The position numbers and the translations under genes are program-made. DNA of 64,000 nt from Pachysolen tannophilus NRRL Y-2460 (Eukaryota): positions 900,502 to 964,501 of the forward strand of contig KV454013.1 in NCBI GenBank assembly GCA_001661245.1. The letters run 5' to 3'. Position 1 is the stretch's first letter, and each line of letters opens with the position of its first letter. Shown here piece by piece: positions 5,621 through 57,126 of this stretch. The notes under the pieces are model-generated. The model was not told the origin of the DNA. It did no database searches and saw only the letters and a program-made list of their open reading frames with translations.

Positions 5621-6049
5621 ATGCCATCAGAGACTAGTAGCAATGATTTGGCACTAACGCTGGAATACGAAAAGTTGAAAAAACAGCTTCATCATCAAAT
5701 AGTGAATAAGAGAAACTTGGATAGAGAACTTACAATGTTGGAAGAAGAGATATTTAATAAAGAAACACTGTATTTAAGTCAAGGAGCTTATGGGAATATA
5801 ATTAAAGGATTTACAAATTTTCCAAAAACTTCTGGGTCTTCAAATAGTAGGAAAAAGTTTAGTTTTACAGATGATGATAGAATATTCAGTTTAAGTTCTT
5901 CAACTTATGTTAGACATTTAAAAAAAATTAATGAAAATGGTGGTAACCTGGAAAATTCATCAAATGTTAATTTTGAAGAATTAGCTGAAGAAGATATTGA
6001 TATAACACCAAATTCTGGTAAAAAAAAGAAAAAAATTAATGAAGAATAG
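5621..6049 (+). CDS. EAF6: NuA4/NuA3 histone acetyltransferase subunit Eaf6
   Basis: LEEEIFNKET(A)YL...GNIIKGF...DDDRIFSLSS is the Eaf6 signature. Confidence 0.92.
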   Translation: MPSETSSNDLALTLEYEKLKKQLHHQIVNKRNLDRELTMLEEEIFNKETLYLSQGAYGNIIKGFTNFPKTSGSSNSRKKFSFTDDDRIFSLSSSTYVRHLKKINENGGNLENSSNVNFEELAEEDIDITPNSGKKKKKINEE

Positions 6050-6570
6050 TTGTTAGTTTTTTTTTTTGTGTTTATGGGTGTACAGTAAATAGTATAAGCT
6101 ACAAATGTGGGTTTTGTTTTTGTTTTTTTTTATTTATTTTTAAATTTCAATTTAGTCTCCAAAATTATAATAATTGTAAACGAATATTATGTTTTCATGT
6201 TCGCATTGCCAAATAAAAAAAAATAAAAAATAAAATGTACAAAGTTATAAACAATTAAAAGAAAACAAGTGCTATAAAAAGATATTCTAAAATTTGTTTT
6301 TTTTTTTCTTTTGTTTTTTTTAAAAAAAGAGAATAATCAAACTCATAATGAAATGTACTTTAAAACTTGAACTTCATAAACGAACAGCAATTAAAAAAAT
6401 AAAAAAATCAACAGAATATAGTATTATAATATGATAAAAAGAAATAAATGAATTTTGTTTTAAATTCTTTATTTTTTTTTTTTTTCTTTTTTTTCCTTTT
6501 TGTGTTTAATTAAGGGAATATTTAATTAAAACAATCTTCTTCTATCAAAATTGAATTCATCATTCGTAAT

Positions 6571-8178
6571 TTATAATTCTTTGAAACAATCTCTACCAAA
6601 GAATGCAATTTTAAGCCAATCAGCACAAACCTTAAATCTTGATCTAACAGATAAGATCATGGAAACGTACAAGACTCTCCAGACAAAGAAAGTAAAGAGA
6701 CCACCACCAGAGTATAAGTTTCTCTTACCATATGTGACATTGGCAATAGCCTTTTCTGAACCCAAATAAGCTAAAGCACCCAAGTGAATATAATTGAAAG
6801 GTTTAATACCAACAGATTCAAATACAGCTGGAACTCGAGAAACATCAGATTTAGACAATTGTTCTGTAAATGATGGTTTTGAAGCAATTTTAGAGAAAAC
6901 TTTTGCCAAATATTCAGCTTCTTGATGAGCAACTTGAGCAGTTGGAGCCAATTTAGCATTACTACAATCACCAATGGCAAAGATATTTTTAGAACCTTTA
7001 ACCAATAAATTTTCATTAACAACTAATCCTCTTCTAACATCAGATTGATCTGGGATTTTTTTAGCTAAAGATTGAACAATTGGTCTTTGTTTATTACCTG
7101 TTGCCCAAATTAACATACCATATGGAATATTTTCTTCTTTAACACTTTCTCCCTTTTTAGTTTTAGCAATTAAAAAGTTATCTTCAACTTTGGTAACAGC
7201 AGTACTTGTTCTTAAATCAATTGCAGTTTCTGATAAAACTTTAGCAGCATATTTAGTTAATTTAGTTTCAAACATATTTAAGACATTTGGCATTGCTTCC
7301 AATAATAAGATTTGAAGTTCATCAACTATATTTGGCATTATATGTTTTAAATCTTGTTCGATAAAATCACTTAATTCACCAGCAGTTTCAACACCTGTTG
7401 GACCACCACCAACAACAACAATTGTTAATAACTTCTTACGTTCTGGATCACCTTTTGGTAATAAATTTGCCTTTTCAACACATTCAACAAATTTATTTCT
7501 AATTTTCTTGGAATCTGGAATTTCTTTTAAGAAAAAACCATGTTCTTCAACACCTGGAATACCAAAAGTATTTGGAGTAGCACCAACACCAACTACTAAA
7601 TAATCATAATGAACAGATGCAAGATCTGAAGTATTTGGTTTAATCTTTAATTCACCAGAAAGACTTGTTGCATTATTAACCGATTTAAAAGTGATGGAAT
7701 TATTTGATGGGTCAATATCAGTTGCTTCAGCTTCATAATAAGTAACATCACCTTTTTTCTTACTTGCAAAATTAACAACTGGTTCCATAATTGATTTTTC
7801 ATCAACAGTACCAACTGGACAAGATGGTAATAATGGAGTGAAAAGAAAATAATTTCTTGGAGAAATAATAATAATATTATATTTACTCGAATCAATATTT
7901 TTCAATAATGAAATTGATCCCCAACCAGTACCCAAGATAACTATATTTGGCTTACCATTGTCTGAATGGTTATAACTAATAATTCTCTTGGATTCCGTTG
8001 TCTTGTGGAAAGAAGTGGAACCAGTAACTTTACCATCAGTAGCAACAGTCGAATTGAATCTTGAACCAACGAAAAATTTTGTGGAAATAACAGTTGAAGC
8101 AGATCCAATATTGTTTCTCGAGATTAATCTCTTTGAAGGGTTCAGTAAAGAACGACAATTTTTAATATTTCTTAACAT
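6571..8178 (-). CDS. NDI1: Type II mitochondrial NADH:ubiquinone oxidoreductase, Ndi1-like
   Basis: Arg/Ser-rich presequence; GTGWG and GGGPTGVE dinucleotide-binding motifs; PVGTVDEKSI.EP.VNFA.KKKG.VTYYEAEAT and C-terminal AFFGRDCFKEL closely resemble recalled S. cerevisiae Ndi1. NDI versus NDE assignment is less certain than the family call. Confidence 0.85.
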   Translation of the reverse strand: MLRNIKNCRSLLNPSKRLISRNNIGSASTVISTKFFVGSRFNSTVATDGKVTGSTSFHKTTESKRIISYNHSDNGKPNIVILGTGWGSISLLKNIDSSKYNIIIISPRNYFLFTPLLPSCPVGTVDEKSIMEPVVNFASKKKGDVTYYEAEATDIDPSNNSITFKSVNNATSLSGELKIKPNTSDLASVHYDYLVVGVGATPNTFGIPGVEEHGFFLKEIPDSKKIRNKFVECVEKANLLPKGDPERKKLLTIVVVGGGPTGVETAGELSDFIEQDLKHIMPNIVDELQILLLEAMPNVLNMFETKLTKYAAKVLSETAIDLRTSTAVTKVEDNFLIAKTKKGESVKEENIPYGMLIWATGNKQRPIVQSLAKKIPDQSDVRRGLVVNENLLVKGSKNIFAIGDCSNAKLAPTAQVAHQEAEYLAKVFSKIASKPSFTEQLSKSDVSRVPAVFESVGIKPFNYIHLGALAYLGSEKAIANVTYGKRNLYSGGGLFTFFVWRVLYVSMILSVRSRFKVCADWLKIAFFGRDCFKEL

Positions 8179-8700
8179 CTTTTTCTTTGGCGGTATTCTT
8201 CCCCTTAACTTAAACCAACGGTTATTTTACGAAAAATTGAAAAAAATGAAGTTTTCAGAAATATATGTTGTTATAGATATAGATGATATATATATATATA
8301 TATATATTTATGTATGCGTTTTTTTCACAAATTTTTTTTTTTTCAAGAGAAACCTAATATTGCATTCGAACCTAAAATTTTAAAAAGTCCGAATTTCTAA
8401 AAGAATAAATTTAAATGAGAAAAAGAAAACTAAACAAAACAAAAACAAAATAAATCAAAATAAATATATATAAAATTATAATTAGAATTAAAATAAATAA
8501 CAAAAGAATAAAAATAAAAAAATATAAACCTCTCCGCTCTTTAGCCTTTTTTTATGAATTCTTGATAATATTCAATTCAAACAAGTCGAGTTAGAATTTA
8601 TGAGATTCCTGCTTTCAATTCTGAGTGTTTTTTTTTTTTTGCTTTTTTTACTTTTTTTTCTTTTTTTCACTTTTCGTTCATTGGTTAATTTTTTATACAT

Positions 8701-8910
8701 TTTCCCACCTTCCTCATTGGGAAGCGCAGCTCCGGCCACCCTCACTGCTTTCGGTATTTCGGTAACCCAGAGTTCTGTGCCAGCAATACACGAGGGGTCG
8801 CCGATGGCAATGGATGCAACGGCTATTCTAGGCATTTTTTTTTTACATGATATAAAGCTATGCGTTCGGTCTTTCTTGTGGGCGCTACACCGAAAGGTAG
8901 TGTGTTTAAG
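8701..8910. promoter_or_regulatory. GC-rich UAS-like island upstream of the NDI1-like gene
   Basis: CTTCCTCATTGGGAAG at 8709-8724 is Mcm1-like and contains CCAAT on the minus strand. Several CGG/CCG triplets sit in otherwise very AT-rich DNA. Confidence 0.5.
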
Positions 8911-18500: not shown

Positions 18501-18512
18501 TATTAAAAAAAT

Positions 18513-19173
18513 ATGCAAACTATAAAGTGTGTTGTTGTGGGCGATGGTGCAGTCGGTAAAGTAAGTTATAACAAACAATAGGAATATGACAATAATTAAT
18601 TGAAGGTGTTTACTAACTTTTTTTTTTTTTTATGTTGGCCTACAGACTTGTCTTTTAATTTCATATACAACAAATAAATTTCCCCTGGATTATGTTCCAA
18701 CAGTTTTTGATAATTATGCAGTCACAGTTATGATTGGGGATGATCCATATACTTTAGGTTTATTTGATACAGCGGGTCAAGAAGATTATGACCGTCTTCG
18801 TCCTTTAAGTTACCCTTCAACGGATGTATTCTTGGTATGTTTTTCGGTGATTGCTCCTTCATCGTTTGAAAATGTTAGAGAAAAATGGTTTCCTGAAGTT
18901 CATCATCATTGTCCCGGTGTTCCTTGTTTAATTGTTGGTACACAGGTTGATTTAAGAAATGATATGGCAATCTTGGAAAGGTTAAGAAAACAAAGTCAAC
19001 ACCCAATATCTGCACAACAAGGTGAACGCATGGCAAAAGAGTTGAGAGCAGTAAAATATGTGGAATGTTCAGCATTGACCCAGCAAGGGTTGAAAAACGT
19101 ATTTGATGAAGCAATTGTTGCAGCACTTGAACCTCCAGTTATTAAGAGAAGTAAGAAGTGCACTATCTTATGA
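18513..19173 (+). CDS. CDC42: Rho-family GTPase Cdc42; exons 18513-18560 and 18646-19173, 191 aa
   Basis: [16 protein letters not shown] joins [13 protein letters not shown](CTG)[11 protein letters not shown]-terminal CAAX CTIL. Confidence 0.98.
18561..18645 (+). other. Coding-region intron of CDC42 (85 nt)
   Basis: GTAAGT donor, TACTAAC at 18611-18617, CAG acceptor; removal gives an exact 191-aa Cdc42. Confidence 0.96.
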
Positions 19174-21786: not shown

Positions 21787-22454
21787 NNNNNNNNNNNNNN
21801 NNNNNNNNNNNNNNNNNNNNNNNNNNNNNNNNNNNNNNNNNNNNNNNNNNNNNNNNNNNNNNNNNNNNNNNNNNNNNNNNNNNNNNNNNNNNNNNNNNNN
21901 NNNNNNNNNNNNNNNNNNNNNNNNNNNNNNNNNNNNNNNNNNNNNNNNNNNNNNNNNNNNNNNNNNNNNNNNNNNNNNNNNNNNNNNNNNNNNNNNNNNN
22001 NNNNNNNNNNNNNNNNNNNNNNNNNNNNNNNNNNNNNNNNNNNNNNNNNNNNNNNNNNNNNNNNNNNNNNNNNNNNNNNNNNNNNNNNNNNNNNNNNNNN
22101 NNNNNNNNNNNNNNNNNNNNNNNNNNNNNNNNNNNNNNNNNNNNNNNNNNNNNNNNNNNNNNNNNNNNNNNNNNNNNNNNNNNNNNNNNNNNNNNNNNNN
22201 NNNNNNNNNNNNNNNNNNNNNNNNNNNNNNNNNNNNNNNNNNNNNNNNNNNNNNNNNNNNNNNNNNNNNNNNNNNNNNNNNNNNNNNNNNNNNNNNNNNN
22301 NNNNNNNNNNNNNNNNNNNNNNNNNNNNNNNNNNNNNNNNNNNNNNNNNNNNNNNNNNNNNNNNNNNNNNNNNNNNNNNNNNNNNNNNNNNNNNNNNNNN
22401 NNNNNNNNNNNNNNNNNNNNNNNNNNNNNNNNNNNNNNNNNNNNNNNNNNNNNN
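21787..22454. other. Assembly gap (N run)
   Basis: Run of n next to a poly-A tract. Confidence 1.
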
Positions 22455-23246: not shown

Positions 23247-25382
23247 ATGTCATTTTCATCAGATTCATTCTTGAGAAACGTGTTATTAGATCCTCAGTTA
23301 ACTTCCCGTCAGTTGAACGAAAATTCTTCAGAGATTGGTTCTAGAAATGGTTCATTGAATTCTTCGCCCTCAGCTGCTGCTAATACGCTCTTGGAAATAA
23401 CTAATAACAACAACAACAACAACATTAATATTAATAATAACGCTTTCAGTCAGAATAACTCTTCTCCGGAATCATCAGCTTCAACAAATAGTCACCGCAA
23501 CAGTACGAGTAATAGCATTGATAATAGTTTTGGTAACGGTAATGGCGGTAGTGATGGGAAATATGCCAATCATAGTTCAAGCGCGAAAAGGAAATATCAT
23601 ACAAAGAGTAGGAACGGTTGTGCTACTTGTAAGAAAAGAAGAGTTAAATGTGATGAGCGTCATCCTATTTGTTCTAAATGTGAACATATGGGTATAGAAT
23701 GTATATATCTCCCTATTGAGCCAAAAGTAAGGAGGAAGAAAAAACATTTAACAAATGGTGATATTGATCAGGAAAGCCGGGATGATATAGATGAATCGAA
23801 ATTTAAGCGTAATAAGTTACAGAATAATAATAAGTTTAATCCAACGATAAGTATTAAAATTGATGATTATGATCGTCTTGCCAAGGGCCAAAATTATACA
23901 ACTTCCTCCTTTATGCGTAATGAGAATCCAGCTGATAATAGTAACAATGACAATAATTCAAAAATTAACAATGAGGATTTGTTGAGATCAGGTAAAATCC
24001 CATCAATATCTACAAACAACAATGGAAACATTCACCTACCGCAGCTGCAACACCTTAACGATGTGATGAATTCTGCTCAGCGCCATCATCAGCAGTATCT
24101 GCAACAACTGCAACGTCATCTTCGACTTCAACTGCAACAGCAGCTGCAGCTGCAGCTGCATCGAAAACAACAGCATCAACAGCAACAGCAACAACAGGGT
24201 CAGTCGCAGCAGCTGAAGAAACAACGAAGGTCTTCTGAAAAAGAGAGTCTTAAAGTGGAACCAAGCTTATCACCTTCGATTCCAGCACCTTCACTAAATC
24301 CTATGGATTCAAGTGGCTTCAATTACTCTGGAAATTTAAATATGTTGGATTTGAGGCTAATGTACCATTATACAATGAAAGTTTGGCCTACCATCACAGC
24401 AGCTGGCATCTCAGAAGAAAAAATATGGAGTGAAGACATTCCAATGTTGGCATTCAGTTACCCATTTTTGATGCATTCAATATTAGCTTTCAGTGCTACG
24501 CATTTATCTAGAACAGAAAAAGGGTTAGACCAATGTGTTACTTGTCATAGAGGTGACGCATTAAGATTATTAAGAGAAGCTGTGTTAGAAATATCACCAC
24601 AAAATACGGACGCTTTAGTAGCTTCAGCATTAATTTTAATTATGGATTCTTTGGCCAATGCTTCTTTGCCAACTTCAATTTCTCCGAAATCTTTACCTGC
24701 AAGTGCTTGGATTTTCCATGTAAAAGGTGCTGCTACTATTTTAACTGCAGTTTGGCCTTTAAATGAATCGTCGAGGTTTTATAAGTTTATAAGTGTGGAT
24801 TTAGGAGATTTGGGTGATATTTTAAAAGAAAGGTCATCAATGTCTACAGAAGAAATGGAGGATCGTATGCCACTTTTTTCTGACTTGCAATGTTTTGATA
24901 ATGATATTGCTGACTTGTACCCGGTGCCTTATTCTTCGCCTTATTTAATAACATTGGCATATTTGAACAAATTGCACAACGAAAGATACAAGTCGGATTT
25001 TATCTTGAGAATATTTGCATTTCCTGCTTTATTAGATAAAACTTTTTTAGGATTATTGATAAACGGAGATGTAGCAGCAATGAGAATAATGAGGTCTTAT
25101 TATACTTTATTGAGATCATTTACTACGGCTATGAAGGATAAAGTATGGTTTTTGGAAGGATTATCGAATGTGTTACCAGTTGATGTTGAACAATATTCCG
25201 GTGGGGGTGGTATGCACATGATGTTAGATTTTCTTGGTGGTCCTTCAACTTCTAATGATAATGAGGATGATGATCTGGATGCCTATCCTAGTGTTGGAAA
25301 TGGATTGTTGGATACAGACAACTTGCCCAGTTCTATCACCAATAATTTAGAGATCATGCAAGGTGATAATGGATTCATGTAG
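23247..25382 (+). CDS. UPC2: Zn2Cys6 sterol regulatory transcription factor Upc2/Ecm22
   Basis: [28 protein letters not shown] zinc cluster; C-terminal LDLRLMYHY...[11 protein letters not shown]...[14 protein letters not shown]. First ATG is at 23247. Confidence 0.96.
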
Positions 25383-25585: not shown

Positions 25586-27691
25586 TTAACTTCTAGGAAC
25601 ACCTAATTCTAACAATTTTGCAAAAGCGTCTGCAAAATCTTTGCAGAACTTTTCGTTGTCAGAAGCATAAATTTCTACCCATTTTTTAAATTCAGGATCT
25701 TTAATCAATTCCATATCAGTTCTTAACATCATCAAGTCATTTTCTCTATTGAAATATTGCATACTGCCGGTTGCTGGCACTGCATCCCATTCCCATTCCA
25801 ATTCTAACAAAACTACAAAAAATCTGTTACTAAAATGTATTGGATTTTCTGTCCATTTACCTTCCCAACCACTATATTTTCTGTGACACCTACCTAAAGA
25901 ATGACCACCGCCTATTAATACAACAGTTTCTTGGTCGTTGAATCCTAGATGATTTTGAAAAACATCTCTTATATGATGCCTATCCTTGGATCCCAATGGT
26001 AATCTTCCATTTGCTGGAATTTTGCTTTGATCTGAACAATCAATCCTACCTGGTTTCCACTCAATTTTTGGTCCGCACATTTCTTCAATAGCTACTACCA
26101 GGCCAAGTGTCCATAGATCTGCATATGTTATCAGTGGGAACCGCTGTTTGATCACTTCCATGAGATGTAATGCAGTGTGTAAACCAGTATTTCCGTCATC
26201 AGTCAACTCAGGTGGAAATCTGTAGTTGAAGGTTGTTAGTTAACTTTTTTTTTTTTTTTTTTCTTATGGTTCAATGACCTAATTTTCATAAAAACAAACT
26301 CACCTCATGGTAGCGCCATTTGATCCTCCTTCTCCTGTGTTTTTGTCATATGTCGCACAAGCATGCCATGCTAAACGAACAACAACAGGGCCGAAAGATC
26401 CATCATCAAAAGTAGGACACAGAAGACTCTTTTTAATAGCCTCTCTAACATCGTCGTAATCCACTGGTTGTGACGTTTCTTGAGTTTCTGAATCATTATG
26501 ATGAGGTTGCACTTTTTTTCTACGTGAAATCTTTAACCTAGAAGGTGATGTAGAATCAAGTTTATGCTTTGATAGTCTGATTTTAATCCCATGCGATTTC
26601 AGTGGAGTTATAGTTCCTTCAAATGATAATTCTTTGGCTTCTGGGGCTTCTGGAGTAAGAGATGACAGCTTCTCGTCTATGTTCAAATTTTCTAATGAAG
26701 TGACGGAAAGTTGTGAGGGTGAAAGTTTTGTTTCGACAGTAACGGCTTTCCTTGCATTTACAGATGATAAAACTTTTTGATCCTGACTATTTGGTGCTTT
26801 AAAAACTGAATTTTCACTTGTAGAAGTAAATTTTTCACTAACAAAAGGATCATATGAGTTAGGTGGTGATTGCCTTGTCGAATAATATCCTCTTTTCTTT
26901 ATTGGAGAGTTTTTTTTAGTCAACAATTCCGGATTTTCGAAAAGTATGTCCTGAGGTATTAATGGTGATTTTAATTCAGCATTTGTCGAAACCAATTCAT
27001 CTCTACCCGTTTTTTCTCTAAGCTTTCTTATAGATTCATGAGATAAATGATATGGTTTTAAATCAAAATCATCTATGTTTTTGAATACTTCGTCAGCATA
27101 ATCATCTTCCTCTTCCTCAATATCTGGGCTTTTCTCTCTCAAATTAATGGATTTCTTGATTTGTGGGTGATAAACATATTTATATACTTTCCTTCCAGTA
27201 AATAACTCGTATAAGCAAACTGGTGCATGAAGTAAAAACCTGTCATAACCATAATCCGAGAGTATCCAAGTTCTTACAACCAACTGATAAGGAGTTCTTG
27301 CCGGTTCAAACATATGATCAATTTCTTTATCAAAATCACTTCTTAAATCTTTTTTAGATGTATTTTTCTCTTTCAGATTAGTATTTTGCCCTTTTTTGTT
27401 TTTAGATTTGAGTTTTTCTTCTTTCAGTTTTTTCAATGGCGAAGTGAAATAACCATTAGGTATCAATCTGACTTTAAGAGTTAAAACAATAACCCTAATA
27501 AAATTTGAAACTGAATATAAGAAAAATAGATTAAAAACATGTGGCAATAAAATTGTTCTTATTAAAAGCCTAAATGCTTTTTCAACAAAATTAAAAAACT
27601 TAGCAATGGATCCAGAAAATCTAGTTGGAATTCTTAAGTAGGACCTAACATCAATGTTTGATGTTTCGTCAAATATTTGCAACAATGGCAT
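25586..27691 (-). CDS. Class I heme peroxidase (Ccp2-like) with long N-terminal extension; exons 27691-26304 and 26219-25586, ~673 aa
   Basis: [16 protein letters not shown]...GGSNGATMR joins [13 protein letters not shown]; proximal His in [17 protein letters not shown]. The two track ORFs are joined by an 84-nt intron. Confidence 0.88.
26220..26303 (-). other. Intron of the peroxidase gene (84 nt)
   Basis: GTGAGT donor, AACTAAC branch, CAG acceptor; removal restores the conserved ATMRF motif. Confidence 0.92.
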
Positions 27692-30578: not shown

Positions 30579-31997
30579 ATGAGTTTTAAAGGTTTTAGAA
30601 AAACAGTTGTGAGGGCTCCTCAGACATTTCGTCAGAAACTTAATATGGGGGTTCAAACTGTTGATGCTATTTATGTTGATGCTGAAAGAAGGTTTCAAGA
30701 ATTGGAAGTTGAGACTAAGAAATTGGAGGCTGAATCCAAACGTTACTTTAATGCAGTCAATGGTATGTTAGAACATCAAATTGGATTTTCTAAAGGAATT
30801 GAAGAAATTTATAATCCTATATCGGGGAAAGTTTCTGATCCTACTACTTTAAAAGCTGAAGGTAGTCTTGAAGGAATTGAAGCAGCAAAACAGTATAGAG
30901 AAGTTGTTGCGGAATTACAACAAACTTTAAAACCTGATTTAGAATTAATTGAAACTAGAATTATTGGGCCTGCTCAAGAATTAATAAAAGTTATTGAATC
31001 AATTAGGAAAATGGCTACTAAGAGAGGTCATAAATTATTGGATTTAGATCGTCATAATAATACATTAAAAAAATATCAAGATAAAAAGGAGAAAACTCCA
31101 AAAGATGAAGAAAAATTATATAAAGCAGAAGCAGATGTTGCTATAGCACAACAAGAATATGATTATTATAATGAAATGTTAAAAAATGAATTACCTGTTT
31201 TATTTCAATTGGAATCTGAATTTATCAAACCATTATTTGTTAGTTTGTATTATATGCAATTGAATATTTTTTATACTTTATATACAAGGATGGAAGAATT
31301 AAAAATTCCATATTTTGATTTATCTTCGGATATTATTGAAGCATTCCAAATTAAGAGAGGAGATATTCAAGAACAAGCTGAAGCTATAGGAATTACACAT
31401 TTTAAAGTTGGACATGCAAGAGCCAAATTAGAAGCTACAAAGAGGAGATATGCAGCAGGAGGAGCTGGAACTGTTGGGTCCCCAGCACCAAGTTCACCTG
31501 TCCCTGGATCTCCATACAGCCCAGTGGGAACTCAAGAACTACCTGCTTATACTCCGCCAGCAACAGGAGCTTATGGCCAGCAACCAGTGACAGCAGCAAC
31601 AACAGCACAAGGTTATCCGAATGAAAAAGCAGCGTATGCTCAAAATACAAATAGTGCATATGCTTCTCCAACTTCATACACAAGTGCGCCTAGCGGACCT
31701 GCGCCTCTGTACGGATCACCACTGTATGGCTCTCCTCTGTACGGATCACCAATGTCACCTACTGTTGCTGGTGCTCCCCAACAACAACAACCATTACAAC
31801 AGCCACTGCAACAAGCTACAGAGACGTGCACTGCGTTATACGATTATGCAGCACAAGCCGAAGGCGACTTGAGTTTCTCTGCTGGAGCAGTCATTGAAAT
31901 TGTACAAAGAACCGCTGACGTTAACGGATGGTGGACAGGAAGAATAAATGGAGTACAAGGTGTTTTCCCGGGCAATTATGTCCAATTAAACCATTAA
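30579..31997 (+). CDS. RVS167: Amphiphysin-like BAR-GPA-SH3 protein Rvs167
   Basis: MSFKGF...RAPQ N-BAR domain, Gly/Pro/Ala-rich linker, SH3 [15 protein letters not shown]...GVFPGNYV. Confidence 0.96.
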
Positions 31998-36425: not shown

Positions 36426-38321
36426 CTAGTCAATAACGACTATATTTTCGTTATGTTCTTCTCCAGATTGATCTGAAACAATTGAGTCATTAAATTTTTT
36501 TTTCTTCTGTGGAGTCTCGCCTATATTCTCGTCTTCAGCTCTTCTTTTATTATTTCCAGTCAGAGCTTCTTCAGAATCATCATCAATATCTAGAATAACA
36601 ATTCCATCATCGTCAACAATAAAACCATCATCACCCTTATCAATTTCTGCTTCTGCTTCTTCTTCTTCTTGTTCTTCCTCTTCCTCTACTTCTTTTTTCT
36701 CTTTATCAGGAATGTCCAAACTTGGAACCTCCAATACTTTGTCACCATTATCGGAAGTTACTTCGATATATAACTCACAACTCTCCTTTTCGTCATCTTC
36801 ATCATTTATTGATAGTACTTCTCCATTTTTAAATCCGATATCAACCAAGCGTACAGATAAATTATCATCAAAGTCAAAATCGTAAATCAATTTGTTTTTA
36901 CCCAAGATCAATGATACTTCTTCATATTTCAAAACCTCTCTTATCTTATCGATCAAATCCTGCAAAATAAATGTATCTAAACCATTTTTAATTTTCAAAA
37001 TTCCTCTTTTTATAGAGCATTCTTTACAATTTTTATTCCCACTAACTAACAGAGATGATGAAACAAACTTATCAAAGTACTGAGAAGTGAAAATTAAGCG
37101 AGACTTGTCAAAACTTGATTGTAAAGAATTTTCAAAACAATTCAAAGATTGCAAGCAACTAAAACCAGCTATAATTGCATTTGTAGTTGCCACAGCAGGT
37201 ATAATATTTCCTGCAATCTGCTTTATATCGAATTTTGTCTTTGTGGGTATGTTAAAGATAAAAGATCTTAAATTTGATGATGCAACAACAAAATTCAAAG
37301 TATCCTTATCATCTTTATCAAAGGGAATCAGTTCAAAGTTATTTAAAACATATCTTTTTGATAGTGATTTTATCGACTTTATCAATATGGAAAGATTTTC
37401 TTCAACATTCCACAATTTTTGATCATCATCCTGAACATTTAAATCAATTTTATAATTTTCATAATCTAATGGTTTTGGTTTTGTTCTTATGGTCCATAAA
37501 CTATCAATCGATAACAATCTTTGAATATCAACATTGAAAATCTTATTGATAATTTTATAAATATAATCAATATTATCCTGTTTTGATTCTTTGATCAACA
37601 GTTTCAATTCCCATAATTCATTGTTTTCTCTTAACAACAGGTCAATCTCCTGTTTATCATCAGTATCTAAATCATTCGGATTTAAATCCTCTTTAACATC
37701 CTCACCAAAAAGTTGTAAGAACAAAAAATTTTTCAGCCATGTAATACTATGTATAGGTTTTGAAGGAGTTGATCTAATTGTACATACTGGAAAAGTTTTT
37801 GGTGTTTCTTTAGCAATACAATCAAAACATTCCGATTTATATGGGAATATAGGTTGAACTTGACCTTTAAATCCAGTCGTACCGCTTTCCATTAATGGCC
37901 GTTTCAAAAAAAGAGCAATCTTGTTAACATAATTTCTTGCCTCAAGATTATCCAATGCATTGAATATTATATCAAACTGATCAAACCACTCTAATGGGAA
38001 CATAATAGTGTCCATGATACTTCCATGATACGATTTTAATATAGTATTCTTATCATTGTTAAAAAATTCAACCGCTTTAATAGCAGTTGAAGATTTCGAT
38101 TTCTTAATGTCCTTTTGTCTAAAAAGAAATTGTCTATTCAAATTTGAAAGATCAATCGTATCCAAATCAACAATATGAATCTCACCATAATTCGTCAAGA
38201 TTAAATTTTTCAACAACTCACATCCAATTCCACCAGAACCTACCAACAACACCTTGGATTTTTTAATCTTGCCCAATTTTTCTACTCCTAAAACTTTCTT
38301 CAAATGCGAATCTCGCGCCAT
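36426..38321 (-). CDS. UBA2: SUMO E1 activating enzyme large subunit
   Basis: GSGGIGCE, DLSNLNRQFLF, catalytic Cys in FPVCTIRSTPS, AGNIIPAVATTNA. First ATG is at 38321. Confidence 0.96.
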   Translation of the reverse strand: MARDSHLKKVLGVEKLGKIKKSKVLLVGSGGIGCELLKNLILTNYGEIHIVDLDTIDLSNLNRQFLFRQKDIKKSKSSTAIKAVEFFNNDKNTILKSYHGSIMDTIMFPLEWFDQFDIIFNALDNLEARNYVNKIALFLKRPLMESGTTGFKGQVQPIFPYKSECFDCIAKETPKTFPVCTIRSTPSKPIHSITWLKNFLFLQLFGEDVKEDLNPNDLDTDDKQEIDLLLRENNELWELKLLIKESKQDNIDYIYKIINKIFNVDIQRLLSIDSLWTIRTKPKPLDYENYKIDLNVQDDDQKLWNVEENLSILIKSIKSLSKRYVLNNFELIPFDKDDKDTLNFVVASSNLRSFIFNIPTKTKFDIKQIAGNIIPAVATTNAIIAGFSCLQSLNCFENSLQSSFDKSRLIFTSQYFDKFVSSSLLVSGNKNCKECSIKRGILKIKNGLDTFILQDLIDKIREVLKYEEVSLILGKNKLIYDFDFDDNLSVRLVDIGFKNGEVLSINDEDDEKESCELYIEVTSDNGDKVLEVPSLDIPDKEKKEVEEEEEQEEEEAEAEIDKGDDGFIVDDDGIVILDIDDDSEEALTGNNKRRAEDENIGETPQKKKKFNDSIVSDQSGEEHNENIVVID

Positions 38322-38764
38322 TTTCTTTCTTTCTTTCTTTCCTTTTCTTTTGTTTCTCCTTCGTTTGTTCTTGATTGGTTTTCTTTTTATATAATAAATA
38401 TACAATTGTTATCAACCAAACTTGACTTGTCTTTTGGTTGTATTTTTTGTTATTTTTTTTTTGGTGGAACTTCTCGTGTCATCAATAGGGGTGACACAAA
38501 ACTTGATTAAAGGCGACATGTGACGCCAGATCTAGAAGTTGTCTTTCAAGTTCAAATAGTTAACTTAAAACCCAGTTATAGTTGATTGTATTTAAAGATA
38601 TAGATATAGATGTGTATATATGAGATATATATGGAAACCGAAGAACTAAATTTAAAAATATATATTAAACCAAAAATCGTAGAGAACCCGTTAAAAAAAA
38701 ACCAATAAACAAATAGACATACTAAACCAAATATATAATAAAAAAGATAATAATCGTAATCATG

Positions 38765-41436: not shown

Positions 41437-42747
41437 CTATGTGGCTACAGTATCAGGATAATAAAAAAATGAAATCAGTATGATGAGATATGTGCTTAAT
41501 AACATTGCACCTTCTAGCCAATTACTTTCTCCATCCAAAATTAAATAATTTGTAATGAAAACGGCAACAAACATCACTGCGGTTTCAAAAGTTGAGAAAT
41601 ATAATGACATTGGAGTATCAAAGATCCAACCAATCAAGACCATAAATGGAGTGACAAACAATGAAATTTGTAAAGATGACCCTACAGCAACACCAATGGC
41701 AAGATCCATTTTATCCTTATATGCCACAACCACTGCAGTAACGTGCTCTGCAGCGTTACCAACAATTGGAATAATAATCAACCCAATAAATGTTTTGGAC
41801 AACCCGCTTGTTTCAACAATATCGTCAATTGAGCTAACTAGATAATCAGCACAAAATGAAACCATCACAGTTGTAACAATTAAGACCGTGACTGCAGCAA
41901 CTGGAGATAAATGCATTTGTGCATGTTCATCTTTTAATCTTTGTTGTTGAATTTCTGAGAGCCCAGATAAAGGTAATCCATTTTCAGTTGCAACATCATT
42001 GTTCATTTGTTCATCCAGGCTTTCAAATAATTGTTTATGTGTTTTCAATTGAAATAAAAGATATAAAACATAGACAATTAATAAGATGATTGATGTACCT
42101 CTGGATAGAGATAGTACTAAATCATCAGAAGTACCAGGGACTGGGAATTCATTTCTTGGCTCTTTCAAATCAGGGTTAGGTAATGAAGCATGAAAAGCAG
42201 CTGGTAAAAGTAAACCTATAACAGACAATGCTAATAATGAAGACATTGTTTGTGCAACAGTCTGATTAAATGTTTGTTGCACTCTATTATAACCTCCAAC
42301 AACAAAACAACATCCCAACACTAATAATAAATTCGACAAGATACTGCCCAACATCGACAGTTGTACAACTCTAATTTGATTTTGCTTTATTGCAATTATA
42401 GAAACAATTAATTCCACAGCATTACCAAAAGTTGCATTGAGTAACCCACCAATAGTCTGACCAACATTATCAGCTAATTCTTCAGTAGCATATGCCAACA
42501 CAGAAGCCAACAGAATTATAGAAAAAAAATTAAAACTAAATATCCATGTTGATGAAAAACCTAAAGTTTCCGATAATAGCCCCAAAGGAACAAGTACCAA
42601 AAGATAATTAACTGGATTCGATGATACAGTAAGATACGTAATTCTCTTAAAATTCAAATAAAACAGCACCAGTCTCTCACCACCATTCCTCCTAACGGAA
42701 TTGTGATTACCACTGCTATTCACAAGTAATGGGCTAGTTTCTGGCAT
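41437..42747 (-). CDS. VCX1: Vacuolar Ca2+/H+ exchanger
   Basis: [15 protein letters not shown](A)[15 protein letters not shown] and GNAAEH alpha-repeat motifs. Confidence 0.96.
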
Positions 42748-42763
42748 TGATCCTTTTTATTCT

Positions 42764-44743: not shown

Positions 44744-44786
<43 letters not shown>

Positions 44787-48601: not shown

Positions 48602-48657
48602 TGGTCAATTTTTTTTAAATAAAATTATAAAAAAAATTGACCATTGACCATTGACCA
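48602..48657. repeat. 16-bp inverted repeat plus tandem TTGACCA x3
   Basis: TGGTCAATTTTTTTTA (48602-48617), 10-nt spacer, TAAAAAAAATTGACCA (48628-48643), then two more TTGACCA. Confidence 0.85.
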
Positions 48658-48998: not shown

Positions 48999-49037
<39 letters not shown>

Positions 49038-49123
49038 TGATAAATAATATTTATAAAGTAGTTAAATTTATAAGTTATTTATTTTTATTTATATTAATAA
49101 ATTATTTTTATTGTATAATTATT

Positions 49124-50923
49124 ATGTCTACTTTTTTCAAATTAAATAGTCGAAAAAAACCCAATAGTTTAAAAATATCAAATCCAATTTTATTTGATGA
49201 AGTTAAGACTCCAGATAATGTTGAAGCAATTCCAATAGATCAAGCTAAAATTGTATTAAAAAATAATAGTTCTCAAAGATCTTCAATATTAACTCCTTCA
49301 CCAGTTGAAAGTTTTAAAAAAAAATATGGATCAAATTCATCATCACAATTACAACCAGTTATATTAATTTCAAAATATAAATTTCAACTGTATAATTCTA
49401 GGGAATTAACTATAGATGCTAATGAACCATTAAAACTTATATCAAGACAAGGTGATGGTTGGTTATTAGTAACACCCATTGGTAGATTAGGTGTTCCAGG
49501 TTTAGTACCTCTGTCATATTGTAAACTGGTTAATTTTGAAAATAATTCAATTTTAGATGATGATTGGTTAATTAAAAATCAATATTCTTCTTCAATTAAT
49601 AATCAAGAAAATAATCAAATTCAAGAAAATACTCCAACTTCTCAAATGTCACAATATAATTATAATTATAATAAAAGTGAAAGTAATACTTCTGCAAATA
49701 GTGATAGGGATACTCTTTTACCTAATCCATTACCATCATCCCCTATTTCAAGTATAAAATCTTCATCACCTTCAATTTCAATTCAAAAAGATATGATTGA
49801 TAATTTAAATTTAATTTCTTCAATTTCTATAAATTCATTTTCATCACATAATGATAGATATTGGTATAAAATTGATTTTAAATTAAAAAATGGTAAAATG
49901 AATTTTTTATGTCGTTATTATCAAGATTTTTATAATTTACATTTATCTTTATTTGATCATTTTTCATCAATGAATAATTTTTTCTTTTTACAAAAATTAC
50001 CATCTTTACCAGAACCAATTCAAAGACCAAATTCTTCAAGACTTTTAAAAAGATGTTCAGATTTAAATGATTATATTCAAAATTTAATAGAAATTTTTAA
50101 AACTCATGAAATTGGTGATCACGCTGATGAAGCTGCAAATGATATCTTATTAGTATGGCTTTTACCTAAAAAGGATGATTTGGAATTATCAACATTAGAA
50201 TATTCTTCATTTTTATCAAAAGAAATGGTTACAAAACCTGAAGAATATTTTTCAGGAGAATTTACAAAACCTAGAAGTTTAGAAGTCGTCAATATTAAAT
50301 TATTATCACCAGCAAATTCTGCACAATCATCTCCAATTGATTCTCCTAAATTGAGCTTACCAAAAGTTGTAGATTCATGGTCAAGCAAAGAGGAAGATCA
50401 ACATCAAGTTAAACATCAAGTAGAAGAAGAAGAACAAGAAGAAGAAGAAGAAGAAAAAACAATTGTTGAGACAGAAAAGAAGGAAATTACAAAACAACAA
50501 AATGAAGATGATATATCTCCTGAGTCTTTCTCTCCAACACCGCCATTATTCCATAATAATCTGGCAAAACTAAATATCATAACCGAAAGAAGAAACCATC
50601 ATAGTCATCAAAATTCAAAATCAAATGAAAACTACCTATCGATAAATAATCCAGAAAAACCTAGTCCCACAATCAATAGTTACATCAAAGTTAAAGTTAT
50701 TAGTAATAATGGTAAAGATATCTTAGCAATGAGAATGTTCAAAGATTCAAGTATGACTGTATTGAAGTTATCAATTTCAAGCAGACTTCATATTTACGAT
50801 TATCTTTTAAGTTACAAAGACTTTAAAGACGGGTTTTTCAAACCTTTAAGAACTAATAAAGATTTACAAGAGGCGATATATCGAAATAAAATCGTTATAA
50901 AAGTGGATGAATTAGAAACGTAA
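49124..50923 (+). CDS. Bem1/Scd2-like scaffold with a single SH3, a PX and a PB1 domain
   Basis: SH3 YKFQ(A)...ELT...GWLLVTPIGRLGVPGLVP(A)SY; PX RYWY...LCRYYQDFYNLH...LPSLPEP; PB1 IKVKV...SYKD...DLQEA. First ATG is at 49124. Confidence 0.8.
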   Translation: MSTFFKLNSRKKPNSLKISNPILFDEVKTPDNVEAIPIDQAKIVLKNNSSQRSSILTPSPVESFKKKYGSNSSSQLQPVILISKYKFQLYNSRELTIDANEPLKLISRQGDGWLLVTPIGRLGVPGLVPLSYCKLVNFENNSILDDDWLIKNQYSSSINNQENNQIQENTPTSQMSQYNYNYNKSESNTSANSDRDTLLPNPLPSSPISSIKSSSPSISIQKDMIDNLNLISSISINSFSSHNDRYWYKIDFKLKNGKMNFLCRYYQDFYNLHLSLFDHFSSMNNFFFLQKLPSLPEPIQRPNSSRLLKRCSDLNDYIQNLIEIFKTHEIGDHADEAANDILLVWLLPKKDDLELSTLEYSSFLSKEMVTKPEEYFSGEFTKPRSLEVVNIKLLSPANSAQSSPIDSPKLSLPKVVDSWSSKEEDQHQVKHQVEEEEQEEEEEEKTIVETEKKEITKQQNEDDISPESFSPTPPLFHNNLAKLNIITERRNHHSHQNSKSNENYLSINNPEKPSPTINSYIKVKVISNNGKDILAMRMFKDSSMTVLKLSISSRLHIYDYLLSYKDFKDGFFKPLRTNKDLQEAIYRNKIVIKVDELET

Positions 50924-52396: not shown

Positions 52397-52808
52397 NNNN
52401 NNNNNNNNNNNNNNNNNNNNNNNNNNNNNNNNNNNNNNNNNNNNNNNNNNNNNNNNNNNNNNNNNNNNNNNNNNNNNNNNNNNNNNNNNNNNNNNNNNNN
52501 NNNNNNNNNNNNNNNNNNNNNNNNNNNNNNNNNNNNNNNNNNNNNNNNNNNNNNNNNNNNNNNNNNNNNNNNNNNNNNNNNNNNNNNNNNNNNNNNNNNN
52601 NNNNNNNNNNNNNNNNNNNNNNNNNNNNNNNNNNNNNNNNNNNNNNNNNNNNNNNNNNNNNNNNNNNNNNNNNNNNNNNNNNNNNNNNNNNNNNNNNNNN
52701 NNNNNNNNNNNNNNNNNNNNNNNNNNNNNNNNNNNNNNNNNNNNNNNNNNNNNNNNNNNNNNNNNNNNNNNNNNNNNNNNNNNNNNNNNNNNNNNNNNNN
52801 NNNNNNNN
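52397..52808. other. Assembly gap (N run)
   Basis: Run of n followed by a long poly-A tract. Confidence 1.
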
Positions 52809-52860
<52 letters not shown>

Positions 52861-52871
52861 CCGCCAAATCA

Positions 52872-55502
52872 CTAACGTAAATTATCAGGATCAATTGTCA
52901 CTATCTTATTCACAGCAAGACTCTTGTATTCTTTTAAAATTGGTAAATTGTATTTCAACACACCCCGTACTATGAGGTCAAAAGGATATTGAGATAGTTT
53001 TACCCATTTTTTCTCTCCTCCCTTAGGGGGCTTCTTTGTCTTTCCCTTATTAATACCAAATCTATTATTAGGATCTTTAAAAGGAGGATTAGGTGGATGA
53101 TTCTCACTGCCAGTAGAAGTTGGATTTAGGTTTACCGTGGTAGTAGTAGTGGTGGTGGGTGATGTTGAAGTAGATGTCGCCGGACCATTATCGTCATCGT
53201 CATCGTCAGAACAGGGGTGTATTATTTTCACCTCACTAACAACCACAACTTTTTGCCTTGTGAAAAATCCGCCTTGAAATTTCAATGGAACTTCAAAATG
53301 CCGTATGTTACCCAATAATACGGTTTGTAACTGTCCATCATCTTGCTCTTGCATATCGATGACACCATTGCTAGCAAAACTATATCCCTCATCTTCCTCA
53401 GTTGAAATTTTATAATAATCTTCATCTTTTGCATGAGAACTTTTAGCAAAAATATCAAGTTCTACATCTTGAATTTCAATACTGAAAAACCCTGGATTGA
53501 AACCTTCAAACACTAAATTGAAAACAAATTCTTCCTCCGAAATAATAACATCTCTAACTTGTAGTATCCTAACTGCTTGTAAATCTTTTGTAGAAGCTAA
53601 TAAGAATCCAGAAATGAACCCTGACCCTAACAATAATAAAATTAAAATGAAGGTAATCATGAAATTTTTGAACTGTTTCAATTTTTGATTTTTGGAGTTT
53701 GGAAAATTATGAGGTGAAAAATATAAATCATTATTTCTTTTAAATTTTTTCAACCCACCACCTGTACCAGCTACACTGTAACTTCCATGATTTCCTAAAT
53801 AACTACTTGCGAAATCATTTCTTCCATCGTTTATACTACCATAAGCATTCTTACGACCTGACCTTAAACTTTTGAATTGATCATTATCAAACGGAATCTC
53901 TTCATTACCATTAGGATCATCAGTATTATTAATATTATTATTACGAACTTGATTGTTGAAATCGAATTCATCAAAATCATCATCATCAAAATCATCAAAA
54001 TCAATATTTTCAGGTAAAAATGAGTAACGCCTTGGTTGAGTTCCTTTTGAGTCAAATAATTTAGAAGTTATCGCTCTTAATGGTGGAATCTCATCAGAGG
54101 TATTACTATTAGTAACAGTATTATTCGTATTATTCAATTGCAGCTTCAGTTTCTGTTGATTTGCAGGTAGTGAATTATACTGTTTGTTTTTCAAATTATC
54201 ATTTCCTGTACCTGTATTTTTTGGAAATCTTTTTAAAGATTTATAATGATTCATACCATGTTTAACAAATCTTGGAGATCCATTTCCCTTGTTTGTATTT
54301 GACAATTGAGATCTCGAATCATATGTTGATGTTTCAAAATCATCATCCTCTATATCATTATCCGAATAATTAACACTTTTATCTATAGATAGATTATTAC
54401 CATGTCGGTTGTTCCCCATAACGTAATCAGTAGGTGCAGTGGCGGTATTACTTGATGCAGTACCATCTGCAATCAAATTAGAATTTTCCCCTACAACCCC
54501 AGTGTTGGGATTATTACAATCGACGCATATCCCATTATTATGATGAACATCCAACAAAGACTGTTGTTGTTCATTACTATTATCAGTATAAATGCTTGTT
54601 ATATTTGATGGCAGACCTTGAGCAACAACGCTATTTATAGAGCCATTTCTCAGATTAAATCTTGGTTTTCGTATACTTCCAGATTTATATAAAGTATTAG
54701 GGTTATTGTTGGCTTGTAACTGTGTCTGCATGGTTGGAGAAGATAAAGTATTCCCCGTTGAAGAAGGGTTATTAATAGAACCATTACTATTGGTACTATT
54801 TATAGTGTTATGCGGTTGCATTTGCAGCAGCTGTTGTAATTGCAGTTGCAGTTGCAGAAGTTGACTTTGCTGCTGGAGTTGAACTTGCTGAATCTGCTGG
54901 TTTGTACTGCTATTGTTATCATACACAAATGTTTCATTGCTGTCATCATCCACATTTTCCTTTACCGTATTATTCAATAATAATGAATGATTGTCTGTGG
55001 TTGAGTTGGTCATCACCGGATTACCACCTGCATTACCATTAATAATATTATTTGCTGCTATCGCCGCACTGCTGGGTATACCAATATTATTATTATTATT
55101 ACTGTTGCTGTTATTAATATTTTCATTTTCATTACTATTATTATTATTATTATTAATACTATTATTAGCATTATTATTATTATTGTTATTATTACTGCTA
55201 TTATTACCATTGCTACTATTATTAGTATTATTAACACCCATATTATTGTTATTTATTGGTAAGAGATTAGTCGATGGCGTAGCAACAGTTTCCGTCTCCA
55301 CTATCATCCTCGAAGTCTTACTCAACAAACTATTCTTATTATCAGAAGATGTCGTTTTTGTATAGGATGGTTTTATACTACTAGTATCCACCACTCCTTT
55401 GTTACTAGCATTATTACTAGAAACATCATTATTTTCCTCCAACCTTGCATGATCACTTATATTCTCTCCATTTCCACTATTCCGAAGATGGTTACTCGAC
55501 AT
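52872..55502 (-). CDS. VAC7: Vacuolar membrane Fab1 activator Vac7
   Basis: MIVETETV and NETFVY motifs, SPHNF before a single TM, then GFLLASTKDLQ...NPGFFSI.IQDV.LDIFAKS...TVLLG...PFDLIVRG. Confidence 0.88.
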   Translation of the reverse strand: MSSNHLRNSGNGENISDHARLEENNDVSSNNASNKGVVDTSSIKPSYTKTTSSDNKNSLLSKTSRMIVETETVATPSTNLLPINNNNMGVNNTNNSSNGNNSSNNNNNNNNANNSINNNNNNSNENENINNSNSNNNNNIGIPSSAAIAANNIINGNAGGNPVMTNSTTDNHSLLLNNTVKENVDDDSNETFVYDNNSSTNQQIQQVQLQQQSQLLQLQLQLQQLLQMQPHNTINSTNSNGSINNPSSTGNTLSSPTMQTQLQANNNPNTLYKSGSIRKPRFNLRNGSINSVVAQGLPSNITSIYTDNSNEQQQSLLDVHHNNGICVDCNNPNTGVVGENSNLIADGTASSNTATAPTDYVMGNNRHGNNLSIDKSVNYSDNDIEDDDFETSTYDSRSQLSNTNKGNGSPRFVKHGMNHYKSLKRFPKNTGTGNDNLKNKQYNSLPANQQKLKLQLNNTNNTVTNSNTSDEIPPLRAITSKLFDSKGTQPRRYSFLPENIDFDDFDDDDFDEFDFNNQVRNNNINNTDDPNGNEEIPFDNDQFKSLRSGRKNAYGSINDGRNDFASSYLGNHGSYSVAGTGGGLKKFKRNNDLYFSPHNFPNSKNQKLKQFKNFMITFILILLLLGSGFISGFLLASTKDLQAVRILQVRDVIISEEEFVFNLVFEGFNPGFFSIEIQDVELDIFAKSSHAKDEDYYKISTEEDEGYSFASNGVIDMQEQDDGQLQTVLLGNIRHFEVPLKFQGGFFTRQKVVVVSEVKIIHPCSDDDDDDNGPATSTSTSPTTTTTTTVNLNPTSTGSENHPPNPPFKDPNNRFGINKGKTKKPPKGGEKKWVKLSQYPFDLIVRGVLKYNLPILKEYKSLAVNKIVTIDPDNLR

Positions 55503-55853
55503 AATACTCAGATATCTACTTCTCTCCTAATCCATATACCCAGATATCCAGATATCTTCAATTTATTGATTCTAATCTCTTTGTTAAAAACATATATTAT
55601 ATATCTATATATATATATATATATAGTTACTAGATAGATTAGATTAAATTTATATGTTTTCTTTCTACCAAAAAAAATAAAAAAATCGATATGAGAAAGC
55701 AAGTTGCCTAATCCGGCTTTTGACATTTTTATGCACTACTTCCATTTTCTTTTTAAGATGGAAGATGGAGCAAAGTAGCAATTTGAAAGAGTTTGTTCAA
55801 CTAGTTTCAAGGAAGTTTGGATAAGTCTTGGATGACGAGTCTTGGTAAAGAAT

Positions 55854-57126
55854 TTAGATGGTCAGCAAGATGTCTTCTCTATCTAGGTTCAAGAGTTTGA
55901 CTCTGCTGGTAAAATCGTCTCTGTTTATATATGCGCCACACATTCTTCTTTGACCAGTGAATTTTGTTCTTCTTGAGTGGAGGACTCTCCAATTATCGAA
56001 TATTAAGCATTGTCCCGGTTTTAAAGTATGGTAAAACTCATTTTTATTTGATTCTAATAATTCGTTCCATCTTTTAGTAGCTTTGTAAAAAAGTGGGATC
56101 TGCAACTCCGGGTCATCCAATGGTAGGTTTAAAGTTGATCTATCACTTATATTCCAACGAACTTGAATTAATTCTCCCATATAATTATGATTTAAAATTG
56201 GACGAGGATATGAAGGTTGAATGAAAACATTTTCTTCACCTGCAGAATGAGTTGGTATAGGAAATTTAGATAAAATCTCATAATATTCTGGATTTTCCAA
56301 TTGTAATAATTTAGCACAATGGAATGAATCACATAAAGTTGTAATCCCACCAGTACCTGTATGTTTTAGTAAATGAAATAATTGTAAACCTGGTGGATCG
56401 GTAAAATATGTTCCATCAGTATGTAAAGGAATCAGAATATCTGTATATGCTGTATCATTGACATTTAAATCAGAAGTAAAATCCCAAAACCCACCGTAAT
56501 GTGTTGGTCTAATAAATGAAATTTTTTCAATTAAATCCTGGGTACACTCTGGAGATTCAGGTACATTGTCAACAAGGCAAAATCCATATTTCCAAATCTT
56601 AAGCACCCATTTTTTAATTCCTTCATCACTAGACATAATTTCTAAATAATCAATTCGTGGCAATTCGGTTTCAATCTTGGCAACATCCCATAACTCTAAC
56701 TTCAAATAACTGGATTCATTTTTAATTTTATCCTCTTGAAGAATTAAAACTGGACAATAAGAATTTAAAAATAACCAATTAACATTAAATTCACTTTTGT
56801 GATCTTGATGATTCCAGTTGAAAATTAATCTATCTCCGCTTAATTCATAAGAAACCGCTTTTATATCATCCGGAATATCATAAGTATTTTGTAATCTCTG
56901 TCTTGTTAAAGGATGATAACATTCGGAGCAATGACAATGATCCCGTAACCATATATAATGACTTTTAAAGAAAAAAAAATTATAACTAATTGTTAATAAT
57001 TGATTTATTAAAATTATATATATATATATACATATATATTACTTACAATTTAGATTCAACTTTGGTGTCCCAAAGTATAGTAACCAAAGAACTTCCAATC
57101 TCAATATTCTTTACTGAATGACTCAT
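55854..57126 (-). CDS. TMLHE: Trimethyllysine dioxygenase (carnitine biosynthesis step 1); exons 57126-57047 and 56961-55854, ~395 aa
   Basis: Spliced N-terminus ...SKFHYIWLRDHCHCSEC...TRQR (Zn-binding BBOX/TMLH-type domain); THYGGFWDFT, DTAYT, HTDGTY, DNWRVLH, R.MCGAYINRDD. Confidence 0.88.
56962..57046 (-). other. Intron of the trimethyllysine dioxygenase gene (85 nt)
   Basis: GTAAGT donor, TATTAAC branch, AAG acceptor; joins an ATG-initiated exon in frame. Confidence 0.8.

Follow-up and report, generated by a model that had tools for sequence, protein, structure and literature searches.

Which amino acid does CUG specify in the genome that this locus comes from? A sequence-only reading of the window, by which we mean the whole stretch of 64,000 nucleotides (64 kilobases, kb) of contig KV454013.1 analysed here, had proposed that the codon is translated as alanine (Ala) and had named eight sites at which leucine (Leu) does not fit. 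At all eight, a CTG stands in frame within the peptide context that had been given. CTG is not rare in the window, with 93 copies in 33 open reading frames (ORFs) of at least 100 amino acids and 88 copies in 22 gene models, equal to 7.1 per 1,000 codons; the G+C content is about 29% overall and 25-34% per 4-kb window. We conclude, with a probability of roughly 93%, that the sequence belongs to a budding yeast of the order Alaninales, the lineage of Pachysolen, Nakazawaea and Peterozyma in which nuclear CUG means Ala (NCBI translation table 26). The species is most probably Pachysolen tannophilus itself. Judged from the window alone, Leu can be ruled out beyond doubt, and Ala is favoured over serine (Ser) at odds of roughly 80:1 to 9000:1.

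Orthologue columns under CTG

For Uba2 (SUMO-activating enzyme subunit 2) and Vcx1 (vacuolar Ca2+/H+ exchanger), we built alignments of 120 homologues each; for a cytochrome-c/ascorbate-type peroxidase, we aligned 175 matched domain stretches from 150 representatives. The column counts exclude the database copy of the query as well as the nearest relative, and a column was called conserved if at least 90% of its residues were identical. This gave 13 usable CTG sites. The Uba2 and Vcx1 genes and five of the sites are as follows.

36426..38321, minus strand: Uba2 gene with six CTG codons; Pfam ThiF, UBA_E1_SCCH and UAE_UbL
37734..37736, minus strand: Uba2-196 (HSITW-CTG-K); A 117, S 1 and L 0 of 118, an essentially invariant Ala column
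41437..42747, minus strand: Vcx1 gene with six CTG codons; Pfam Na_Ca_ex
42358..42360, minus strand: Vcx1-130 (VVQ-CTG-SMLGS); A 118 of 118, an invariant Ala column
41476..41478, minus strand: Vcx1-424 (YLII-CTG-ISFF); A 118 of 118, a site absent from the earlier list
42511..42513, minus strand: Vcx1-79 (FFSII-CTG-LASV); P 118 of 118, an invariant Pro column in a membrane segment
26099..26101, minus strand: peroxidase-21 (TLG-CTG-VVA); G 122, A 22, S 7 and L 0 of 152, a small-residue column

At the other eight CTG sites, the columns hold the following residues.

Uba2-228: N 55, R 28, A 22
Uba2-241: K, N, R
Uba2-331: F, V, E
Uba2-424: S 23, L 19, K 18
Vcx1-26, a variable N-terminal site: L 37, S 19, A 15 of 110
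Vcx1-28: S 45, Q 22, A 0 of 114
Vcx1-244: Q 91
peroxidase-10: W, E, G

The tabulation of orthologue residues, which the sequence-only reading had proposed as a check, therefore places CTG in three conserved Ala columns, one conserved Pro column and no conserved Leu or Ser column among the 13 sites. Of the 134 sites of the other five Leu codons (TTA, TTG, CTT, CTC and CTA), 57 lie in conserved Leu columns and none in conserved Ala columns. Fisher tests separated CTG from these codons for both Ala columns (p=0.0006) and Leu columns (p=0.0018). For comparison, the six Ser codons occupied 21 conserved Ser and 6 conserved Ala columns at 86 sites, and the four Ala codons occupied 26 conserved Ala columns at 50 sites. 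Profile hidden Markov model (HMM) emissions at the three Ala columns were A +2.49, S +0.30 and L -1.49 bits at Uba2-196, and A +2.29, S +0.17 and L -1.11 bits at Vcx1-130 and Vcx1-424 each.

The CTG codons themselves are not assembly errors, since Logan contigs from four public runs agree over both genes: positions 36701-38746, across Uba2, and all of Vcx1 (41440-42747) were covered with 0 differing letters. These contigs were independently assembled from runs that represent at most three samples in two studies, and one run may be the source of the assembly.

Decoding of CTG and Pfam scores under three codes

In a second approach, we decoded the codons of the window in the manner of Codetta, using the three family alignments and all codons as control. 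The raw version scored column counts with a small pseudocount for the 51 codons that had at least three sites. CTG was the sole deviating codon, with A at -1.4, S at -14.6, Q at -25.3 and L at -36.5 bits over 13 sites. The second version employed HMMER profiles built from the same alignments, with sequence weighting and Dirichlet priors, and read the emissions at the CTG-aligned states. Again CTG was the only one of 50 codons to deviate; its 11 confidently aligned sites gave A +8.2, S +1.9, N and Q +1.7, T +1.1 and L -13.0 bits. Ala was thus the best of the 20 residues in both tests, followed by Ser. The lead of Ala over Ser was 6.3 bits in the conservative HMMER version and 13.2 bits with raw counts, and its lead over Leu was 21-35 bits. 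The normal decoding of the other codons on these alignments rules out misalignment as the source of the CTG signal. On the three families, a Codetta-style version of the check that had been suggested for the whole genome returned Ala for CTG and the standard meaning for every other testable codon.

We then translated 17 ORFs with table 1 (CUG as Leu), table 12 (Ser) and table 26 (Ala) and compared their Pfam scores, in which any change isolates the CTG-aligned columns. The scores, in bits, were as follows.

Peroxidase: Leu 91.5, Ser 95.1, Ala 97.1
UBA_E1_SCCH: Leu 25.7, Ser 29.5, Ala 30.4
SH3_1: Leu 21.9, Ser 25.9, Ala 27.4
SH3_9: Leu no match, Ser 23.8, Ala 28.9
Na_Ca_ex: Leu 171.0, Ser 171.6, Ala 172.7
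NuA4: Leu 84.7, Ser 86.9, Ala 86.6
Ras: Leu 140.7, Ser 142.4, Ala 141.9
Cyclin: Leu 47.2, Ser 51.0, Ala 49.5
Sugar_tr: Leu 305.6, Ser 305.2, Ala 304.5
TauD: Leu 128.4, Ser 128.8, Ala 128.9

Sums made by hand over the best families that do not overlap put Ala about 26 bits and Ser about 22 bits above Leu, and Ala about 4 bits above Ser. Pfam therefore rejects Leu and barely splits Ala from Ser.

The eight sites of the sequence-only reading

Half of the eight sites that had been put forward as signs of CUG-Ala decoding carry such a signal. At Uba2 37734-37736 and Vcx1 42358-42360, the predicted Ala columns were recovered with 117 and 118 of 118 residues, respectively, and at peroxidase 26099-26101 the column indeed holds small residues, with Ala above Ser. 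The fourth is the first of two cited sites in the SH3 domain of a Bem1-like protein, where both distinct Bem1 SH3 chains (PDB 2kym and 2rqv) have Ala and where SH3_1 and SH3_9 score best with Ala. The claim that Uba2, Vcx1 and this SH3 site favour Ala over Ser was thereby borne out. The remaining four sites did not hold up as Ala signals. They are listed here with the two other CTG codons of the Bem1-like SH3 region.

49388..49390, plus strand: Bem1-like residue 89 (YKFQ-CTG-YN); A in both Bem1 chains
49511..49513, plus strand: Bem1-like residue 130 (GLVP-CTG-SY), the second SH3 site that had been cited; V in both Bem1 chains
49523..49525, plus strand: Bem1-like residue 134 (YCK-CTG-VNF); I in both Bem1 chains
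18685..18687, plus strand: Cdc42 residue 30 (FP-CTG-DY), in frame in exon 2; S in human Cdc42
5768..5770, plus strand: Eaf6 residue 50 (ET-CTG-YL); E in Saccharomyces cerevisiae Eaf6
56433..56435, minus strand: residue 68 (DI-CTG-IPLHTD) of a TauD-family dioxygenase of the trimethyllysine/butyrobetaine type; K in human BBOX1

At Eaf6, with Glu in S. cerevisiae, the site is uninformative as to Ala, and the NuA4 scores argue against Leu only. The dioxygenase site is equally uninformative, given Lys in BBOX1 and nearly identical TauD scores under the three codes. Comparisons with PDB entries, which offered one or two distant sequences per site, gave S for Cdc42, K and E for Eaf6, K for the dioxygenase and K and F for Prp9; three sites of a sugar transporter gave G/V/A, A/P/P and M/M/T. 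For these five proteins, such comparisons do not discriminate between the readings.

Lineage and nearest relative

Three lineages of budding yeasts matter here: the Ala clade, delimited by Krassowski 2018 as Pachysolen, Nakazawaea and Peterozyma (PMC5951914), the Serinales with Candida, and the branch of Saccharomycopsis and Ascoidea. A meaning of Ala for CUG is considered diagnostic for the order Alaninales by Groenewald et al. (PMC11182611).

We placed the window with a maximum-likelihood tree of 29 Uba2 sequences, namely those of the window, of its nearest relative and of 27 named yeasts, with no named Alaninales reference among them. The window and the nearest relative formed a clade of their own, with a support of 98 in the Shimodaira-Hasegawa-like approximate likelihood ratio test (SH-aLRT). 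This clade lay outside the Serinales including Babjeviella (96), outside the Pichiales (97) and outside Saccharomycopsis plus Wickerhamomyces, which stand for Ascoideales and Phaffomycetales (98). Alaninales would be expected to form such a separate lineage next to Pichiales and Serinales, and an assignment to the clade of Pachysolen and its relatives fits everything observed.

The nearest relative among the matches listed is 61% identical in Uba2 and 72% identical in Vcx1, and it is known from a Logan translation made with the standard code. Of the conserved Ala columns, its translation has Leu in 2 of 29 in Vcx1 and in 0 of 9 in Uba2; Leu also stands at Uba2-228, where the window carries CTG. 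The relative may thus be a further CUG-Ala yeast whose proteins were derived with the standard code, although the pattern is suggestive only. Its Uba2 and Vcx1 genes apparently lie on one contig, as they do in the window.

An analogous pattern was seen for Ser. Among the 120 Vcx1 homologues, which come from Logan, ENA and JGI, 20 have Leu at columns that are at least 85% Ser, a pattern that is expected for CUG-Ser yeasts translated with the standard code and serves as a positive control. Users of machine-translated collections should be aware that they may hold CUG-Ser proteins read in this way.

Public records and published decoding

In the public database copies of the window's Uba2 and Vcx1 proteins, Ala stands at every CTG. 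By exact look-up, the table-26 translations of both were present in NCBI, UniRef and nr, while neither the table-1 (Leu) nor the table-12 (Ser) translations were found in the same collections. The depositors had therefore already annotated this genome with CUG as Ala. Decoding of CUG as Ala has been described before (Mühlhausen 2016; NCBI table 26), and public records already apply it to this locus.

For Pachysolen tannophilus, Mühlhausen 2016 reported that the tRNA with anticodon CAG groups with alanine tRNAs, carries the alanyl-tRNA synthetase (AlaRS) determinants G3:U70 and A73 and, unlike Ser and Leu tRNAs, has no long variable arm (PMC4937558). Liquid chromatography-tandem mass spectrometry in the same work found Ala at 97.2% of the 907 CUG positions that were fully supported by fragment ions, and the non-Ala remainder was no larger than that of an AUG control. 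The predicted proteome of this yeast has 16,824 CUG positions in 5288 proteins, 80% of its genes are affected, and the published proteomics covered 8.5% of the CUG positions (PMC4937558). The novel tRNAs arose through anticodon mutation of pre-existing tRNA genes (PMC5951914).

We infer the tRNA mechanism and the peptide-level proof for the window from this literature. Following the published P. tannophilus work, CUG would be decoded by an alanine-type tRNA whose anticodon is CAG and which AlaRS recognises by its identity elements G3:U70 and A73. Once the codon had been reassigned, CTG would have emerged anew where Ala was tolerated or required.

The window resembles the P. tannophilus nuclear code (table 26) in that CTG lies in conserved Ala and not in conserved Leu columns, with the other codons standard, and CTG is about as frequent (88 in 22 models compared with 16,824 in 5288 proteins, PMC4937558). 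No difference from table 26 was found in this comparison of codon columns, CTG usage and public translations. With the CUG-Ser1 code (Candida, table 12, Serinales), the window shares the removal of CUG from Leu in an AT-rich budding yeast, and Ser beats Leu by about 22 bits. However, its conserved CTG columns are three Ala and no Ser among 13 sites, and it branches outside the Serinales. The CUG-Ser2 code of Saccharomycopsis and Ascoidea likewise goes back to a separate reassignment of CUG among budding yeasts (PMC5951914, PMC6041473), but the window does not group with Saccharomycopsis on the Uba2 tree and is better fitted by Ala than by Ser.

Alternative meanings of CUG

Leu would leave the standard code intact and turn the odd columns into lineage-specific substitutions or misalignments. 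Some sites suit this view: Leu is the top residue at the variable Vcx1-26 (37 of 110), Bem1 has Val and Ile at two CTG sites of the Bem1-like protein, and Sugar_tr, MFS_1 and Cyclin_N score highest with Leu. Yet Leu lies 21 to 35 bits below Ala in the decoding and about 26 bits below it in the Pfam sums, conserved Leu columns account for 0 of the 13 CTG sites but for 57 of the 134 sites of the other Leu codons, and invariant Ala columns account for 3 of 13 against 0 of 134 (p=0.0006). Misalignment is countered by the normal decoding of all other codons. Decoding, column and Pfam tests together thus refute Leu as far as sequence reaches, and we regard its probability as negligible. 

Ser is the closer competitor by score. 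CUG could be read as Ser as in Candida and the Serinales (table 12) or as in Saccharomycopsis and Ascoidea, and the Ala columns would then reflect tolerated Ala-to-Ser replacements; of the 86 sites of true Ser codons in the window, 6 do fall in conserved Ala columns. The Ser total in Pfam is just about 4 bits below that of Ala, with Ras, Cyclin and NuA4 better under Ser, and Ser is the commonest residue in the columns of Uba2-424 and Vcx1-28 as well as the residue of human Cdc42 at the CTG site. It falls behind Ala, however, by 13.2 bits in raw counts and by 6.3 bits in HMM emissions, conserved Ser columns contain CTG at 0 of 13 sites compared with 21 of 86 for Ser codons, the Uba2 lineage lies outside both the Serinales including Babjeviella and the Saccharomycopsis branch, and it is the Ala translation, not the Ser translation, that is present in the public collection. 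Taken together, we consider Ser very improbable. 

Several observations weigh against Ala and have to be set beside this evidence. The separation of Ala from Ser in the window rests mainly on three columns. Compared with the Ser codons, CTG was not significantly different either in Ala columns (3 of 13 versus 6 of 86, p=0.09) or in Ser columns (0 of 13 versus 21 of 86, p=0.06). Because this count test was not significant, Ala is preferred to Ser on the strength of the likelihood tests, of the tree and of the public records. Beyond Uba2, Vcx1, the peroxidase and the SH3 domain, Pfam showed no preference for Ala (Ras, Cyclin, NuA4, Sugar_tr). The invariant Pro column at Vcx1-79 suits none of Ala, Ser and Leu; CTG is one step away from CCG. 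Further CTG sites align mainly with residues other than Ala, namely Uba2-331 with Phe and Val on top, Vcx1-26 with Leu, Vcx1-28 with Ser and no Ala, Bem1-like residues 130 and 134 with Val and Ile, and the M/M/T site of the sugar transporter. The tree is based on a single gene and a quick search with SH-aLRT only and without bootstrap, and its order labels come partly from PMC11182611 and PMC5951914. Lastly, the 64-kb window contains 0 tRNA genes according to ARAGORN, run with and without introns, and 0 matches to all Rfam families. The placement outside the Ser clades, together with the published tRNA and peptide data, closes the remaining gap between Ala and Ser.

A mixture of meanings would account for the heterogeneity of the CTG sites, which comprise Ala columns, hydrophobic columns (V, I, F, L, M) and Ser-rich columns. 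CUG would then be ambiguous, read as Ala together with Leu or Ser, resembling the stochastic Ser/Leu dual decoding of CUG in Ascoidea asiatica, which provides a precedent (PMC6041473). But variable columns accept many residues, so that such heterogeneity needs no second reading, and the peptides of P. tannophilus show Ala at 97.2% of CUG positions with a remainder at or below the AUG control (PMC4937558). Ambiguous decoding is therefore about as improbable as Ser. The same low probability applies to a weaker form, in which CUG would not be purely Ala owing to a minor additional reading (for example as Leu beside Ala) or to context-dependent decoding; it is considered because a minority of the CTG codons lie at hydrophobic or invariant Pro columns (Vcx1-79, the Bem1-like sites and Vcx1-26). 

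Decoding of CUG as Ala bears mainly on annotation. Under the standard or the Candida code, about 4 positions in each gene receive a wrong residue, and some 80% of the genes are affected (PMC4937558). Furthermore, a genuine sense-codon reassignment was recovered by reading 64 kb of sequence alone, which makes the locus a positive control. It opens no new question, given that the reassignment, the tRNA and the peptide proof were published in 2016, that the clade was delimited in 2018 and that the code is NCBI table 26.

Gene content and structure of the window

According to Pfam, the window holds an ordinary set of budding-yeast genes. They comprise an Alg7-type glycosyltransferase, NDH2, a CHK1-type hybrid histidine kinase of 2320 amino acids, Cdc42, a CCT subunit and a Zn2Cys6 factor. 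Also present are the cytochrome-c/ascorbate-type peroxidase, a sugar porter, an Rvs167-like BAR-SH3 protein, a RhoGAP, Uba2, a Pcl-type cyclin and Vcx1, together with a SAC3/GANP protein, Yuh1, the Bem1-like SH3-PX protein, Vac7 and the TauD-family dioxygenase. An amino-acid permease, Prp9 and a myo-inositol oxygenase complete the set. Introns, runs of N and CTG-rich repeats were located as follows.

18561-18645, plus strand: Cdc42 intron of 85 nucleotides (GTAAGT ... TACTAAC ... CAG); exon 2 is 18646-19173
26220-26303, minus strand: intron of the peroxidase gene, 84 nucleotides (GTGAGT ... AACTAAC ... CAG)
21787-22454: run of 668 N, a scaffold gap or masked stretch
52397-52808: run of 412 N, a scaffold gap or masked stretch
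59234-59575: run of 342 N, a scaffold gap or masked stretch
24132-24158, plus strand: CTG/CAG run, residues 296-304 of the Zn2Cys6 factor
54825-54857, minus strand: CTG/CAG run, residues 216-226 of Vac7
31707-31739, plus strand: three tandem copies of a P-CTG-Y-G-S unit, residues 377-387 of the Rvs167-like protein

Both introns are short and spliceosomal. Owing to its 84-nucleotide intron, the peroxidase is split over two ORFs (26303-27691 and 25586-26161). The last of the three N runs falls within an apparent ORF (59139-59615).

The Bem1-like protein (49124-50923, plus strand) has one SH3 and one PX domain in Pfam. A near-length homologue search returned four proteins with E values of 1e-10 or below, that is, the protein itself and three others at about 30% identity. 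This scarcity of relatives may be an artefact of low-complexity words that fill the candidate list.

Gln codons adjoin 20 of the 88 CTG codons, and Gln makes up just 3.5% of all codons. Under table 26, the CTG/CAG runs of the Zn2Cys6 factor and Vac7 (of the kind CTG CAG CTG CAG CTG, a repeated CAGCTG palindrome) become alternating Gln-Ala tracts. The P-CTG-Y-G-S repeats sit in a Gly/Pro/Ala-rich linker upstream of the SH3 domain of the Rvs167-like protein, where the CTG was copied by repeat expansion.

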